Virus record (IMG/VR): IMGVR_UViG_3300030419_007265
Location: 1 to 60,925 of that record
Direction: 5' to 3' (one strand)
Length of the DNA: 60,925 bases
From: a virus
Taxonomy: Duplodnaviria > Caudoviricetes
Part shown: positions 47,398 through 59,269 of the stretch, one piece after another
How the letters are laid out: each line of letters begins with the position of its first letter
How positions within the stretch are numbered: the first letter of the stretch is position 1
The notes under the pieces: generated by a model
The model's database searches: none
Told to the model about the DNA's origin: nothing
The model's input: only the letters and a program-made list of their open reading frames with translations
Translations under genes and position numbers: made by a program

Positions 47398-49098
47398 CTA
47401 TTTCCAAACCAGAATATCTTCTAATATTAAATAATCTAAATTAGATCGCAAAAATGTTTTAATGGCATCTTCAGCGCTATCTACCAACGGTTCCCCTTTT
47501 AAATTAAAGCTTGTGTTCAAAAAGACAGGGGTACCAGACAATTGCTCAAAATGACCTAAAGCATTATAAATTATTTTATTTTGTTCAGCATTAACAGATT
47601 GAGGTCTACATGTCCCATCAATATGAGTAACCGCAGGTATTCTCTTTTTCCATTCGTCCCTAACAGGCGCGGCTATTAGCATATATGGAGAAGGGTGCTT
47701 TAAATCCACTATTGTATTAAAATTATCTTCCTTTATAACAGGTGCTAATGGACGCCACAATTCTCTGTCTTTAATTTTGTTTACTTTATCTAAATTCGAT
47801 GCAATGGTAGGATTAGCTAAAATACTCCGGTGGCAAAGTGCCCGCGGCCCTATTTCGGCTTTACCTGCACAATAGCCTACAATTTTATTATTATGAATTA
47901 AAGTTGCTAACGTGCTCGCTACATCTACTTGTTTGTAACGAAGCTGAGAATATTGTTTGATAACCTCAACAGCACTCTTGCTCACAAAACTCGACCCCCA
48001 ATAAGCTGAGGGAAAATTTATTGCAGGGATATGCTTTTTCCATCCAGACTGCTCACTTGAACATAAAATAGCTGCACCTAAAGCCGTACCGCTATCATGA
48101 GCCGCAGGAGGTATAAATAAGTTATTTACAAAAGGCTCTTTGATTAATTGTCCATTTGCTGAACAATTTAAAGCTGTACCTCCTGACAAAGCAAAATCGC
48201 CACATCCGGTTTTTGAATAAAGAAGTGTAGCTGCTTCTAGCAATACCTCTTCTAAATACTGCTGTGCGGTTTTGGCTAAGTTAACGCTTTCCGTACATAG
48301 AATGTTTTCATGAATTTTTTGCTTGACTCCTTGCAGTTCTAACTTTGTAAGAAATGTTTCGACTTTGTTTTGATCAATTTGCCATAATCCACCTCGATTA
48401 ACAAAAATTATATCTCTAGGTAATAGGCTTTCATCGCATTGGCCGTAACACGCCAGACCCATTGTTTTCCCTTCTTGCTCATGAGGCTTAAAACCTAAAA
48501 ACTTAGTAATGTCTTCATAGAAACGACCTATCGAGCCTAAGTAAGTAAAGTACGCTTCTTCTCGCATCTTTCCATTTGAAAAATATCCTGCGCGTCCAGC
48601 GGTTGCCCCTCCATTCCCATCCATGGTAATATAATTACATTCTTTAAAAGGCGAACAACTTATGGAGCTAACGGCGTGACATTCGTGGTGATCATACCAA
48701 TGTAAATTTTGTATGGGAAATCCATATCTTATTGCCTCTTTAATAAGTTGAGCTTCGAGGTCGATATCCGCTAATTCGTAAAGTGCTGCGCCGAACTCGT
48801 CCGACTCCCATTCTAACTTATCCCACTCAAGATCTATGTTCTGCGCATAATCAGCGCCATGACATTTTTCCCATGTGTTTCGCGCTGTATCCCATCCAAT
48901 CGCTATCCTTCCAACGTCTTCTTTTTTAATTCCCGCAGCTTCTAAACAATAGTCAATTGAATGACGCGGAAAAGTTTTAAACGATTGCTTTATTCGGCTA
49001 AACCTCTCTTCTTCTGCAAAAGCAATGATTTCGTTATTTTTAAATAAGCATGCGGCTTGATTATAAGCCCCTAAAGTAGTTATCCCTAATATGTACAT
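47398..49098 (-). CDS. Carbamoyltransferase (NodU/CmcH/TobZ family)
   Basis: EEERFSRIK, HHECHA, EGKTMGLA.YG, SGGTALNC, GPRALCHRSILA, WRPLAP, THIDGT.R.Q, LNTSFN.KGEP. Confidence 0.95.
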   Translation of the reverse strand: MYILGITTLGAYNQAACLFKNNEIIAFAEEERFSRIKQSFKTFPRHSIDYCLEAAGIKKEDVGRIAIGWDTARNTWEKCHGADYAQNIDLEWDKLEWESDEFGAALYELADIDLEAQLIKEAIRYGFPIQNLHWYDHHECHAVSSISCSPFKECNYITMDGNGGATAGRAGYFSNGKMREEAYFTYLGSIGRFYEDITKFLGFKPHEQEGKTMGLACYGQCDESLLPRDIIFVNRGGLWQIDQNKVETFLTKLELQGVKQKIHENILCTESVNLAKTAQQYLEEVLLEAATLLYSKTGCGDFALSGGTALNCSANGQLIKEPFVNNLFIPPAAHDSGTALGAAILCSSEQSGWKKHIPAINFPSAYWGSSFVSKSAVEVIKQYSQLRYKQVDVASTLATLIHNNKIVGYCAGKAEIGPRALCHRSILANPTIASNLDKVNKIKDRELWRPLAPVIKEDNFNTIVDLKHPSPYMLIAAPVRDEWKKRIPAVTHIDGTCRPQSVNAEQNKIIYNALGHFEQLSGTPVFLNTSFNLKGEPLVDSAEDAIKTFLRSNLDYLILEDILVWK

Positions 49099-55853: not shown

Positions 55854-56618
55854 TTATTCTTTCCTTGGTTTCCCATTTAAAATCCAATGAGAAGGCAATG
55901 ATCCTTCAAAATGAAGGGAAATATTTTTATTACTCTTATTTAATACCCAAATTGGGGTTCCAGCTGAAATAACATGATTTGGAATCATCCACTCTTCAAA
56001 CTCATCATCATAAGAATTAATTAACCATCCATCATGATAATCATAATCATAAACAACAATATCAGAATTAGATCCAAATAATGATCCTATTGTATTTGTT
56101 TTGTAAGAAAAAGGAACTGTAATCATCGAAAATCCAACGGGTACCACTTGCGAATAATAATAAATGGATTTTTCATTTGATAGCCGCGGTGTTGTAATTT
56201 TATCGCTTTTTTCAAGAATATATCCTTTTACATATCTTGGAAAATTTTCCTTTACATCTCCCCATGTGTAATTCTTTGTTGCTTTTATAATAAGATAATC
56301 TTCGTTTCCTGCATTGTCAGGAAATCCTGTGTCCCAATTTGAATAAGAAAATGACTCTTCAGTTACCCAGCGCCAATTCCCTTCTTCTTTTTCATCTGTA
56401 GCTCCAAGCCAATAATAAGTAGATTCAATATTAGGCATTAATTCATTTATTTGTTTTTGTTCTACTTCATTAGTTATTGTCGCCAAGTGACCTCCTTGTG
56501 CTTCAGCGTGTGCTTTTGCTTCGTGCCAAGTAAAAGCTCCCTCAACGATTTCGTAGGATGTTGCGTTGAGTGAAAACAGACTCATAAAAAGAGCCCCAAA
56601 AATAAATAACCTGTTCAT
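55854..56618 (-). CDS. Secreted C-type lectin-domain protein
   Basis: Signal peptide; TWHEAK...GGHLATI...WLGATD...EG.WRW...YSNW..G.PDN...W.D. Confidence 0.88.
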   Translation of the reverse strand: MNRLFIFGALFMSLFSLNATSYEIVEGAFTWHEAKAHAEAQGGHLATITNEVEQKQINELMPNIESTYYWLGATDEKEEGNWRWVTEESFSYSNWDTGFPDNAGNEDYLIIKATKNYTWGDVKENFPRYVKGYILEKSDKITTPRLSNEKSIYYYSQVVPVGFSMITVPFSYKTNTIGSLFGSNSDIVVYDYDYHDGWLINSYDDEFEEWMIPNHVISAGTPIWVLNKSNKNISLHFEGSLPSHWILNGKPRKE

Positions 56619-57508: not shown

Positions 57509-57688
57509 ATGACATATTGCACACAGACACAAGCTTACAGATTCCACAGTTTAACTGATAACACAGACAGATATATAAAAGGATCAAACAACTTTCCATA
57601 TGGCGCACCTGCCCCAATCGAAGGGGATGAAATCCCCTTCGAATGGGATGACAAAAAAGATGTTGACGCCGACAACAAAACCAATTAA
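57509..57688 (+). CDS. 59-aa hypothetical protein (below track cutoff)
   Basis: MTYCTQTQAYRFHSL...DVDADNKTN; GTTATG start. Confidence 0.65.
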   Translation: MTYCTQTQAYRFHSLTDNTDRYIKGSNNFPYGAPAPIEGDEIPFEWDDKKDVDADNKTN

Positions 57689-57691
57689 GAT
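57663..57691 (+). promoter_or_regulatory. Early promoter P4, embedded in the 3' end of the upstream ORF
   Basis: TTGACG-17-TAAGAT, 10 nt to ATGAGAGAT. Confidence 0.7.
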
Positions 57692-57701
57692 TTTTGAAGT
57701 G

Positions 57702-57995
57702 ATGAGAGATACAAACACAAACAACAACGGGGCCTTTGAGCCACACCAACGCAATCTTGGAGAAGAAGAATCCAAGCAGGACAACAGCACGCGCAGCGAA
57801 TCATTCGAAGGGATGGGCAGCCTGAGTGCTGAAGATATGCACGGCCTGAAAGATGCTATCGACAAAGGGTACAAACACTTTGCTCGGCAGACACACAACA
57901 CCAAAGGCCAGAAGGTTGACCGTCGGCATATGCTCAGCCCAGCCGACCAAGCCAACTTCAGCTACGGCAAGAAGGATGAAAGGGGGGACGCATGA
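57702..57995 (+). CDS. 97-aa hypothetical protein (MRDTNT...)
   Basis: Start reassigned from 57600 by promoter spacing and the MRD start. Confidence 0.7.
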   Translation: MRDTNTNNNGAFEPHQRNLGEEESKQDNSTRSESFEGMGSLSAEDMHGLKDAIDKGYKHFARQTHNTKGQKVDRRHMLSPADQANFSYGKKDERGDA

Positions 57996-58117
57996 GCCGA
58001 GATCGAATTGATGTGAAGCCCGATCTGAAAGCAGCAGATCAAATAATAAGAAAACATCTTCGACGACTCGACCCACCCCGCGAAGAAAAAAAAGTTGAAA
58101 AAAAGTTGCGAAAGGGG

Positions 58118-58146
58118 TTGACCTTGAGAAGATTACTTGGTAAGAT
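58118..58146 (+). promoter_or_regulatory. Early promoter P5 with hairpin leader
   Basis: TTGACC-17-TAAGAT with TG extension; leader contains GGTTC-GAAA-GGGCC. Confidence 0.75.
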
Positions 58147-58186
58147 ATTTTCACCGGTTCGAAAGGGCCACAATAAAAATAAAGTT

Positions 58187-58402
58187 ATGATGACCACAGA
58201 AGAAATACTAAAGCAGATCGAGAGCGTACCACGCCACCAGATCACCTACACTCGGCAGGATGGCCGCACCAACGAATACACGGTAGCCATCACCGAGCGT
58301 CACGCCGACCACATTATCGGCTACAAGTTCCAGAACGGCGAAAGCTGCGGAATACGTCGATTCAACATCGACCAAATAGGCATCCTCGAGCCGGTCACTT
58401 GA
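58187..58402 (+). CDS. Stand-alone WYL-like (Sm/SH3-fold) protein, 71 aa; in-frame longer form from 57992 possible
   Basis: ITYTRQDGRTNEYTV...IIGY...GIRRFNIDQI resembles the WYL pattern Y...G..R ... R.F..DRI. Confidence 0.6.
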   Translation: MMTTEEILKQIESVPRHQITYTRQDGRTNEYTVAITERHADHIIGYKFQNGESCGIRRFNIDQIGILEPVT

Positions 58403-58984
58403 CCGGCCCGAGTTTGAATGGAATCTTTGGCGGTGGTCGCCAGATTTTTTACCCTTTACCATAAAGTAAACGACCACGCATCTGACAGGGCAGATATAAA
58501 ATAACCCTGACGCTTTTTGAAAATTTGAGTTGGCGAGTAAAGGTCTAGCGGCCTGACGCCTCCTTTGCCCACGGTTTGCCAGATATACCTACGGGTCGGT
58601 GCACGTTGAAAGGCAATGTTAAAACACCTCTCCTTTTGCAAGTGTTTTGATTAGACGGCCTAAGAAGGGACAAGGATGGTAAGACATCTTACGCTTGATT
58701 ACTGGTGGCGCGGTAACAACTCAATTAATTTTCTCTCTCGACGGAGGGAGATCGGTGTGGCTGAATAAATCTTCGCCTAGAGGATTAAGGCACGCTCGAT
58801 GAGACTAACGGCCAAGTGGCAGAGGAATTATCGGGTGGTTTGAGTAGGGATCACTGAAACTTGATCTAGGACTCGAAAGATGTAGGTACTCAAGAAATCC
58901 TACCACCAAATTTTTTTTGTAGGCCCGTGTGTGCGCTGTCTACCTCATAACACTAAACACCCCGCGAAAGCGGGGTGTTTTTTT
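58385..58984 (+). ncRNA. Putative large structured ncRNA (~600 nt)
   Basis: No plus-strand ORF of 60 aa or more; more than 12 stems, UNCG/GNRA loops, several pseudoknot pairings, ends in a terminator. Confidence 0.7.
58955..58984 (+). terminator. Intrinsic terminator
   Basis: AAACACCCCGC-GAAA-GCGGGGTGTTTTTTT. Confidence 0.92.
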
Positions 58985-58985
58985 G

Positions 58986-59032
58986 TTGACATCTAACGGC
59001 CGGCGGGCCTGCGCCCAACCGTTAGAGTCAAG
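58986..59032. repeat. Fixed-spacing inverted repeat, copy 1
   Basis: TTGACATCTAAC-N23-GTTAGAGTCAAG. Confidence 0.85.
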
Positions 59033-59075
59033 CAAAATCGCTTAAAAAAAAATAAAAAAAAAATTAAAAAAAGGG

Positions 59076-59103
59076 TTGCAATTTTCCAGAACTGTGATAT
59101 ACT
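59076..59103 (+). promoter_or_regulatory. Early promoter P6
   Basis: Long A-tract, TTGCAA-16-TATACT with TG extension, 10 nt to ATG. Confidence 0.85.
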
Positions 59104-59113
59104 TTTTTCTGTT

Positions 59114-59269
59114 ATGAGAGATACGATTCAAGTTGAAGAGGTTTTTGAGGCTAGCACTGAAATGGTTTCCTGCACTTGTTGCGGGTGTGGTGAGCAGCAC
59201 CACATCGACCACGATGAGGCTGCCGAGTGGTCTAATCTAGATCGGTTCATGTGCTGGGAGTGTGAATAA
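59114..59269 (+). CDS. 51-aa zinc-ribbon protein (below track cutoff)
   Basis: MRDTIQVEEVFEASTEMVSCTCCGCGE...MCWECE. Confidence 0.75.
   Translation: MRDTIQVEEVFEASTEMVSCTCCGCGEQHHIDHDEAAEWSNLDRFMCWECE

Follow-up and report, generated by a model that had tools for sequence, protein, structure and literature searches.

The window analysed here, which is the whole 60,925-base stretch and comprises an entire IMG/VR virus record of an uncultured marine tailed phage (IMGVR_UViG_3300030419_007265; completeness estimate 42%), carries towards its right end a gene for a 71-aa protein, hereafter the mini-protein or A2 family, followed on the same (+) strand by about 450 nt of structured RNA. This RNA is an array of three conserved modules, namely a hairpin-pseudoknot, a core built on a three-way junction and a copy of the manA RNA motif, and it is capped by a terminator. 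Judged by sequence comparison, the array is a conserved and widespread entity whose core is absent from Rfam. We put at about even the chance that the array in the window is a free-standing structured RNA that acts through its fold and is not a cis-regulator of a downstream gene, a reading that we favour because nothing lies downstream for it to regulate and because terminator-capped copies keep their pairings by compensatory change. The readings weighed below overlap in part.

The case for structure rests on an Rfam match and on covariation, since thermodynamic folding of 58445–58984 does not tell the two strands apart (z −2.36 for the + strand versus −2.45 for the − strand). The first-pass annotation had proposed a structured RNA immediately after the open reading frame (ORF), and this is upheld by the match and the covariation but not by fold energy, which alone is not strand-specific. 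Across the whole window manA (RF01745) was the single Rfam family found: positions 58734–58913 (+) align with the full model (1–192 of 192) at 56.3 bits against a gathering score of 55.2 (E 1e-11, or 2e-13 in a narrower search), and beyond manA the interval 58000–59150 gave no Rfam row at E 0.01 except terminator look-alikes. The long-range pairing of the motif joins CGGUG with CACCA, with one non-standard pair and both strands matched, while the middle helices have low posterior probability and several non-standard pairs. A covarying loop–loop contact within manA, between the second hairpin loop and the 3' side of the fourth, was considered and rejected, the mean match being 4.4 nt versus 4.1 nt in cross-paired controls, with three complementary classes.

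The two modules upstream of manA are defined by comparison among related loci. The hairpin-pseudoknot (58480–58509, +) has a 5-bp stem (58480–58484/58491–58495) and a loop, ACAGGG, that pairs with CCCTG at 58505–58509. The core (58525–58724, +) belongs to the second of two subtypes, type 2, and forms a three-way junction with a closing helix of 7–8 bp, inner helices and a hairpin whose 10-nt loop is conserved; at 200 nt and with two large insertions it is among the longest of its type. It had no Rfam match at E up to 10, and a minimal type 1 core returned a sole Rfam row, at E 2.5 and on the opposite strand. An RNAalifold consensus of type 1, made from 18 of 24 cores with the six longest omitted, contains 24 pairs in four helices, 8 of them with compensatory change and with 100% of cells paired; none of 500 shuffles reached its covariation score, and slid controls were 28–46% paired. 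For type 2 (23 of 29 cores) the consensus holds 23 pairs, 4 with compensatory change, in an alignment in which MAFFT misplaced two insertion-bearing sequences. The pseudoknot element was found up to 260 nt upstream in 32 of 53 cores; its stem occurs with seven different pairings. In each of its 22 distinct versions, whichever base stands at the variable loop position, its complement stands at the variable position of the first CCCNGA downstream (A–T in 10, G–C in 6, T–A in 6).

Cores were collected by scanning viral, metagenome and prokaryote contigs for an exact 16-base pattern comprising the core loop and closing strand, so that divergent cores will have been missed. Matches fell in 7 viral loci (on 6 contigs), at least 120 metagenome contigs and 43 prokaryote genome contigs. 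Of the 120 metagenome matches listed, 70 have the closing helix, versus none of the 43 prokaryote genome matches, and we therefore regard the latter as chance, about 70 chance matches being estimated. Among the matches listed, to which all core counts refer, at least 53 distinct cores were obtained from marine viral and metagenome contigs, 24 of type 1 (75–134 nt) and 29 of type 2 (112–205 nt). Many of them stem from one phage lineage or a few and are closely related, so that the counts are not independent events. Neighbouring ORFs were called by a simple script with ATG starts only, and flanks were considered adequate with at least 300 nt upstream and at least 450 nt downstream, which left 35 cores with both. 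Of 28 core loci tested against Rfam, 20 of which were chosen by size from about 70 metagenome loci, 23 have a full-length manA-like match starting 8–10 nt past the core (40.2–58.4 bits, E ≤ 7e-7), with only the window and L004 passing the gathering score; the core occurs without manA in L002, L012, L028, L037 and L081.

Further modules were seen within related arrays. Seven loci (L081, L014, L037, L064, L108, L018 and L013) carry, between pseudoknot and core, an extra module of about 55–75 nt that is not in the window, closed by GGTCGC...GCGACC (GGGTCGC...GCGGCC in L013) and containing two inner hairpins. In L016, L027 and L093 another module, of 100–170 nt, lies between core and manA; in the first two it includes a CTAYTAAGA-like stretch that resembles GCTATTAAGATGC elements in L012 (7230–7330 and 7440–7540), where these elements flank a stand-alone core behind a gene for a single-stranded-DNA-binding-like protein.

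The array's most constant neighbour is a downstream gene for a lysine/arginine-rich protein of 71–94 aa, which the window lacks. This gene follows the array in 31 of 53 cores, and in 30 of the 39 with at least 450 nt downstream, starting about 15–20 nt past the manA-like RNA (for example L003:3128–3409, L013:1420–1680 on the − strand and L067:5682–5894 on the − strand, with 28 more loci). The protein has no Pfam or PHROG family, and a search of the window at E up to 10 returned no homologue. Most relatives thus place manA in a 5' untranslated region (5' UTR), ahead of the lysine-rich gene; the window copy does not lie in one, its terminator standing 42 nt downstream. Among the 35 cores with both flanks, 12 have both the mini-protein gene and the lysine-rich gene, 12 another upstream gene and the lysine-rich gene, 8 the mini-protein gene only, 2 a second small ORF and the lysine-rich gene, and 1 neither. 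All eight mini-protein-only cores end in a terminator, as the window does, and these eight, all behind the mini-protein gene, are the cores among the 35 in which the array ends in a terminator without the lysine-rich gene. When compared with each other, the terminator-capped copies still differ by compensatory changes, and three of the four best manA scores among the tested loci (56.3, 58.4 and 55.1) are theirs. In the free-standing reading, the RNA could act in vivo either by self-assembly, as manA RNAs do in vitro, or by binding small phage proteins.

An array that senses a metabolite or protein, as a cis-regulatory leader or riboswitch, and either controls read-through of the terminator at 58955 or is a relic of a lost lysine-rich gene, is an unlikely explanation for the window. 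In its favour, the array lies directly before the lysine-rich gene in most cores, it has its own promoter directly upstream in seven loci (L017, L024, L067, L093, L099, L013 and L027), and its tandem conserved domains recall tandem riboswitch arrangements. Against this, the terminator of the window and the sequence just before it form a cassette that recurs immediately behind the gene in L006 and behind a core without manA in L002, so that the 58955 terminator does not look like an expression platform that arose together with manA. The next gene is preceded by a promoter of its own, at 59076, and structure is maintained in the eight terminator-capped copies. The proposal of manA as a riboswitch candidate in 5' UTRs (PMC2864571) supports a regulatory role, but full-text literature searches found no paper reporting a manA ligand or in vivo function.

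Several points weigh against the free-standing reading. The position 15–20 nt before the lysine-rich gene in 30 of 39 cores is that of a classic cis-regulatory leader, and it is in the leader position that manA was first described (PMC2864571). Because the window represents only about 42% of the genome, a lysine-rich gene may lie elsewhere in it; the window copy may be a young orphan that has not yet decayed; and the hairpin with a run of six U at 58426–58450, described below, may end most transcripts before the RNA. The contigs from RNA libraries are short and are no proof of transcription. As for self-assembly, the constructs of the cryo-electron microscopy preprint discussed below did not include the window manA, and the assemblies formed in vitro at high RNA concentration (bioRxiv 10.64898/2026.07.01.735769).

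The mini-protein gene and the array likely form one transcription unit, running from a promoter at 58118 through the ORF and the RNA to the terminator. Promoters were called by a consensus match rule. A sigma-70-type promoter-like site (58118–58146, +; TTGACC-17-TAAGAT with TG before the −10) precedes a 40-nt leader from the −10 to the ATG at 58187, as the first-pass annotation had noticed in setting this gene apart from the other early genes, in which the ATG lies about 10 nt past the −10. L002, L003 and L004 share the −35 and the extended −10 but vary in the spacer, and several gene-linked loci have a promoter-like site in the equivalent position before the gene. The leader contains a hairpin near the predicted 5' end of the transcript (58156–58169, +; GGUUC-GAAA-GGGCC, 5 bp with a GAAA loop), which is weak when taken alone (−6.0 kcal/mol, z −1.6, with 12 of 200 shuffles folding equally well) yet survives in L002, L003 and L004, which show GGAA loops and changes of U–G to U–A; it may act as a 5' stabiliser. 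At the other end, the terminator (58955–58980, +, with a run of seven U to 58987) is a G+C-rich hairpin followed directly by a U run, as expected of an intrinsic terminator, with an 11-bp stem, a GAAA loop, −20.9 kcal/mol and z −5.4. Together with the sequence immediately 5' of it, it is conserved in L002, L004 and L006. The consensus scan found no + strand promoter-like site between 58124 and 59076, where the promoter of the next gene stands, nor was a site with at least 10 of 12 hexamer matches found between gene and RNA in any of the 27 gene-linked loci, in which such sites lie upstream of the gene; the earlier observation that the RNA has no separate promoter thus extends to these gene-linked relatives.

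Between ORF and array the window has two further hairpins. The strong hairpin over the stop codon that had been reported earlier is present (58385–58412, +; −20.5 kcal/mol, z −6.0, 0 of 200 shuffles), and a terminator-like hairpin with a run of six U follows at 58426–58450 (+; stem 58426–58444, 7 pairs, −9.2 to −10.3 kcal/mol, z −3.2). Both are restricted to the window and L129, which has an identical 122-nt spacer, and close inspection of L002, L003 and L004 found neither. In the scheme that we propose, the sigma-70-type promoter would produce an early mRNA with a small 5' hairpin that encodes the 71-aa, Sm-fold, WYL-like barrel protein, and the same mRNA would run on into the structured RNA and end at the strong terminator; the weak hairpin with its U run would probably set, by attenuation, the ratio of short mRNA to full-length transcript.

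The first-pass annotation had also allowed for transcription ending at 58412–58450, and a terminator-like hairpin does sit there, but it is weak compared with the real terminator. It is very unlikely that transcripts from 58118 all end at 58445–58450, leaving the RNA silent or dependent on a promoter that went unrecognised. The hairpin with its U run is identical in L129, but its 7 pairs and −9 to −10 kcal/mol compare with −20.9 kcal/mol for the terminator, most relatives are without it, no promoter-like site lies downstream of it and a silent RNA would not keep its structure. One contig from an RNA library (58361–58511) also spans it, which is a weak hint of read-through.

This contig is one of a small set. 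Six of the runs holding part of the stretch are recorded as RNA, and contigs 95–99% alike to the window were obtained from four metatranscriptome runs of three studies. Those of X15 cover 58164–58311 and 58361–58511 (151 nt, including the terminator-like hairpin), that of X16 covers 58666–58885 and so spans the core–manA junction, those of X17 cover 58556–58723 and 58764–58949, and that of X18 covers 58749–58948; the intervals 57900–58151 and 58950–59150 are without such contigs, which carries no weight either way. Since the contigs are short and DNA can be present in such libraries, they serve as a hint only.

Directly after the terminator, positions 58986–59031 (+) form a long hairpin whose 5' arm starts with TTGACA, with arms of about 14 nt and a G+C-rich loop. 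An equivalent hairpin was seen in L002, L004, L018 and L081, and a version of different sequence in L014, L037, L064 and L108.

On its predicted model, the mini-protein is a stand-alone Sm-fold barrel most like WYL domains; by sequence comparison, it is not a demonstrable member of the Pfam WYL family. Searched against 1.84 billion representatives, it gave 22 matches with E no higher than 1e-3, of which 10 are small proteins that align over all 71 residues. The other 12 are large proteins matched over 15–45 residues in several stretches and were set aside as non-homologous; in the five of these that were scanned with Pfam, the repeats are of DUF5018, cadherin-like or similar type, and the match runs through a short strand motif, Y-T-V-T-x-x-D-G. 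Y46, G55, R58 and F59 are invariant in the family alignment, and most members are 66–72 aa long. Public gene calls P0001–P0003 are longer (116–136 aa), starting far upstream and running across the promoter (57992–58402 in the window), and the ATG of the long frame in the window overlaps the stop of the preceding ORF. We take the short ORF (58187–58402, +) to be the gene because the upstream extension is unconserved, only the final 71 residues being conserved, and because the 71-aa part differs from that of L002 mainly at third codon positions.

Annotation of this protein as WYL-like in the first pass held in part, in that a real, conserved small protein with an Sm/WYL-type barrel is indicated by AlphaFold2, Foldseek and ESM Atlas, whereas a match to the Pfam WYL model is not. 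Even at E up to 10 the window protein had no match to the Pfam WYL model (PF13280), the curated cut-off thus not being reached, and one of nine family members matched this model, at E 0.17; PHROGs, Pfam and a profile search of PDB sequences returned sub-threshold chance rows only, and neither the region, the protein nor a core RNA had a match by blastn/tblastn in 50,697 phage records. The AlphaFold2 model, built from nine sequences (predicted local distance difference test, pLDDT, 87.3), consists of an N-terminal helix and five strands in an Sm-like barrel. In a Foldseek search of the PDB, ranks 1–11 are all WYL-domain proteins (BrxR, CapW, PafBC and DriD; E 2.4e-3 to 1.4e-2), with Sm, Lsm and Hfq chains ranking next. 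VIA-align did not separate these groups, the Z of 6.2–6.8 for WYL domains (CapW, PafBC and BrxR) being tied with 6.3–6.9 for Sm/Lsm/Hfq, all below the distinctive level of 8, under which a score may reflect just the common small-barrel arrangement; Lsm, SmAP and Hfq chains superpose with root-mean-square deviations of 1.1–3.3 over 47–57 residues. In the ESM Atlas, 22 of 30 feature neighbours belong to one set, and the cluster listed for that set has 23% PF13280 members (score 0.90). A four-copy complex prediction scored 0.00, which counts neither for nor against assembly.

The WYL domains of BrxR, CapW, PafBC, DriD and WYL1 share with the mini-protein an Sm-like barrel with an N-terminal helix. 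Unlike characterised WYL regulators, however, the mini-protein is a stand-alone 71-aa protein without a helix-turn-helix or ribbon-helix-helix domain and without a WCX/C-terminal extension. WYL domains carry the consensus Y-L and R-x-F-R-x-D-R-I, where the mini-protein has a conserved Y and G-[IV]-R-R-F-N-x-x-x-I, and the W and L of W-Y-L are replaced (G-Y-K). The RNA chaperones of the Sm/Lsm/Hfq group have the same fold and, for Hfq cores, a similar size, but no sequence relation to them was found.

How gene and RNA relate is less clear than the reality of either. The first-pass annotation had paired them as a candidate ribonucleoprotein (RNP) system, and their adjacency is conserved in part. 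A mini-protein homologue lies within 240 nt upstream of 27 of 53 cores (26 of the 49 with at least 300 nt upstream), which makes this gene the commonest upstream neighbour; both subtypes are represented (9 of 24 type 1 and 18 of 29 type 2), the gene–RNA spacer in relatives is as short as 18–28 nt, and four of the 27 have a 47–51-aa ORF between gene and core. In the other 26 cores, however, the 240 nt upstream hold no homologue of it (4 of these cores having less than 300 nt of upstream sequence), and some gene homologues have no RNA. Six other viral contigs encode a mini-protein homologue, three with the RNA (L002, L003 and L004; 64–94% identity) and three, more distant, without it and with a terminator directly after the gene (L006, 59% identical to the query, and L177 and L178, both related to P0014, which is 41% identical). 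For P0022, viral contigs yielded no relative. Because protein and RNA also occur apart, a fixed protein–RNA machine is not established.

A dedicated RNP, in which the Sm/WYL-like mini-protein binds, chaperones or loads onto the RNA of its own transcript, is accordingly a possibility to which we give rather low probability. Its attractions are the Sm-type barrel with WYL domains as best Foldseek matches, the report that WYL1 of type VI-D CRISPR, whose WYL domain is Sm-like, binds single-stranded RNA (PMC6547453), the upstream linkage in both subtypes and the finding that eight of nine terminator-capped arrays with both flanks adequate follow the mini-protein gene. At three further loci the small ORF upstream is of another family and ends in a WYL-like motif, R-x-F-R-x-D-R-[IV]. 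This second family (80–86 aa; L013:2259–2498 and L027:6795–7052, both on the − strand, and L089), in which the ending reads R-x-F-R-A-D-R-[IV], lies upstream of the array in 3 cores with a promoter-like site between ORF and array. It has no detectable relation to the mini-protein family (hhalign probability 0.3%), its AlphaFold2 model is poor (pLDDT 53.6, predicted one helix and five strands) and its ESM Atlas scores of 0.80–0.83 are leads only. Also against a dedicated RNP are five of the unlinked cores with a promoter-like site 100–165 nt upstream (such sites lie 100–305 nt upstream of the core across these five and all three second-ORF loci), the lack of a mini-protein homologue in two other virus records searched whole (78% and 25% complete), and the three distant gene homologues without RNA. 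The gene-linked loci may moreover all belong to one phage lineage, in which case the counts are not independent.

Gene and RNA could instead be unrelated neighbours, the mini-protein acting on the host alone, for example by sequestering signals, single-stranded nucleic acid or nucleotides, to which the WYL regulators of the host respond, and the RNA modules being mobile inserts in its 3' UTR; we consider this decidedly unlikely. Modules do come and go among close relatives, with none in L006, two (pseudoknot and core) in L002 and all three in L004 and the window, and extra ones occur in L013, L014, L016 and L027; the distant gene homologues stand alone. Single-stranded DNA is reported to be bound by CapW (PMC11662680) and, in mycobacteria, to trigger the DNA damage response by binding to PafBC (PMC11804915). 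Chance neighbourhood is, however, at odds with an array behind the mini-protein gene in 27 of 53 cores when the next single family accounts for 3, and with the association being found in both core subtypes.

Comparison with described manA RNAs returns us to the free-standing reading and sets the window apart in several respects. When Weinberg et al. (2010) introduced manA, they proposed it as a candidate riboswitch that is common in 5' UTRs and almost confined to marine metagenomes and T4-like cyanophages (PMC2864571). The window copy agrees with the family as described there in its full-model match above the gathering score and its marine viral source. It differs in following a gene and being capped by a terminator instead of leading a gene, in residing on a siphovirus-like contig and not in a T4-like cyanophage, and in having another conserved RNA 8–10 nt upstream; most of its relatives fall below the gathering score (40–55 bits). 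The neighbours given in the 2010 account (mannose/fructose, nucleotide synthesis, ibpA and photosynthesis; PMC2864571) also differ from those found here. Close packing of several structured RNAs including manA in a marine phage genome has a parallel in cyanophage S-CREM1, in which wcaG, manA and abiF RNAs lie within about 800 nt (PMC9964418, Table 4), but S-CREM1 is a T4-like myovirus, and its partner RNAs, wcaG and abiF, had no match in the window at E up to 10.

According to a preprint of July 2026, cryo-electron microscopy shows several manA RNAs assembled into octamers and decamers built on pentamers, and one assembled into an icosahedral cage of 60 subunits; kissing loops held the assemblies together in vitro (bioRxiv 10.64898/2026.07.01.735769). 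This behaviour speaks for the reading of the window array as a free-standing structural RNA. These self-assembling RNAs belong to the same Rfam family as the window RNA, which differs in having about 250 nt of extra 5' modules and in being part of an mRNA. Extending this to the whole unit, one could imagine that it encodes a phage RNA–protein particle, with manA as a pentamer-based shell, the core and pseudoknot decorating or gating it and the mini-protein (in relatives the lysine-rich protein) as partner or cargo, which would sequester a host factor or defence signal in the first minutes of infection; we regard this as an improbable, speculative elaboration.

The surrounding sequence is that of a phage early region. 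Matches to PHROG families for a 2342-aa tape-measure-like protein, a tail J-like protein and a large terminase indicate a long-tailed phage and hence a siphovirus-like contig, and the sequencing runs that contain the window stretch, from 15 studies, mostly carry marine or seawater metagenome labels. From about 56.9 kb to the right end there are small + strand genes with one sigma-70-type promoter-like site before each. The exact sequence TTATGAGRGA occurs at six sites, on the + strand only, between 56936 and 60125 (for example 57173, 59112, 59453 and 59775), each copy about 10 nt past a −10 hexamer, so that those early mRNAs would carry leaders of just a few bases; the encoded proteins begin with M-R-D or M-R-E, and the arrangement is likewise seen in relatives. 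The ORF at 57600–57995, upstream of the mini-protein gene, probably starts at the ATG at 57703 (M-R-D-T...) and not at 57600: a promoter-like site at 57663–57691 precedes this ATG, and a homologue of the ORF precedes the mini-protein gene in L003/L010. Elsewhere in the window, 47398–49098 (−) encodes a Nol-like carbamoyltransferase (phrog_1601, E 1.5e-106), and the 254-aa ORF at 55854–56618 (−), with a hydrophobic N-terminus and no PHROG match, has a C-type-lectin look judged from the translation only. No tRNA was found in the window.

These results place manA as the last domain of a larger modular RNA, of which the pseudoknot and core covary and are without an Rfam family, so that there are two motifs to curate. 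The array occurs as a leader of the lysine-rich gene, with its own promoter and, as in the window, terminator-capped, without any gene to regulate. Members of two families of small proteins flank it in 32 of the 35 cases with good coverage, and in two more a third family lies upstream; one of the two flanking families, the mini-protein, is predicted to have the fold of nucleic-acid-binding WYL/Sm domains. This locus and the 52 other listed core versions supply a natural context for manA, which was described in 2010 and is now reported to build cages of RNA only in vitro.

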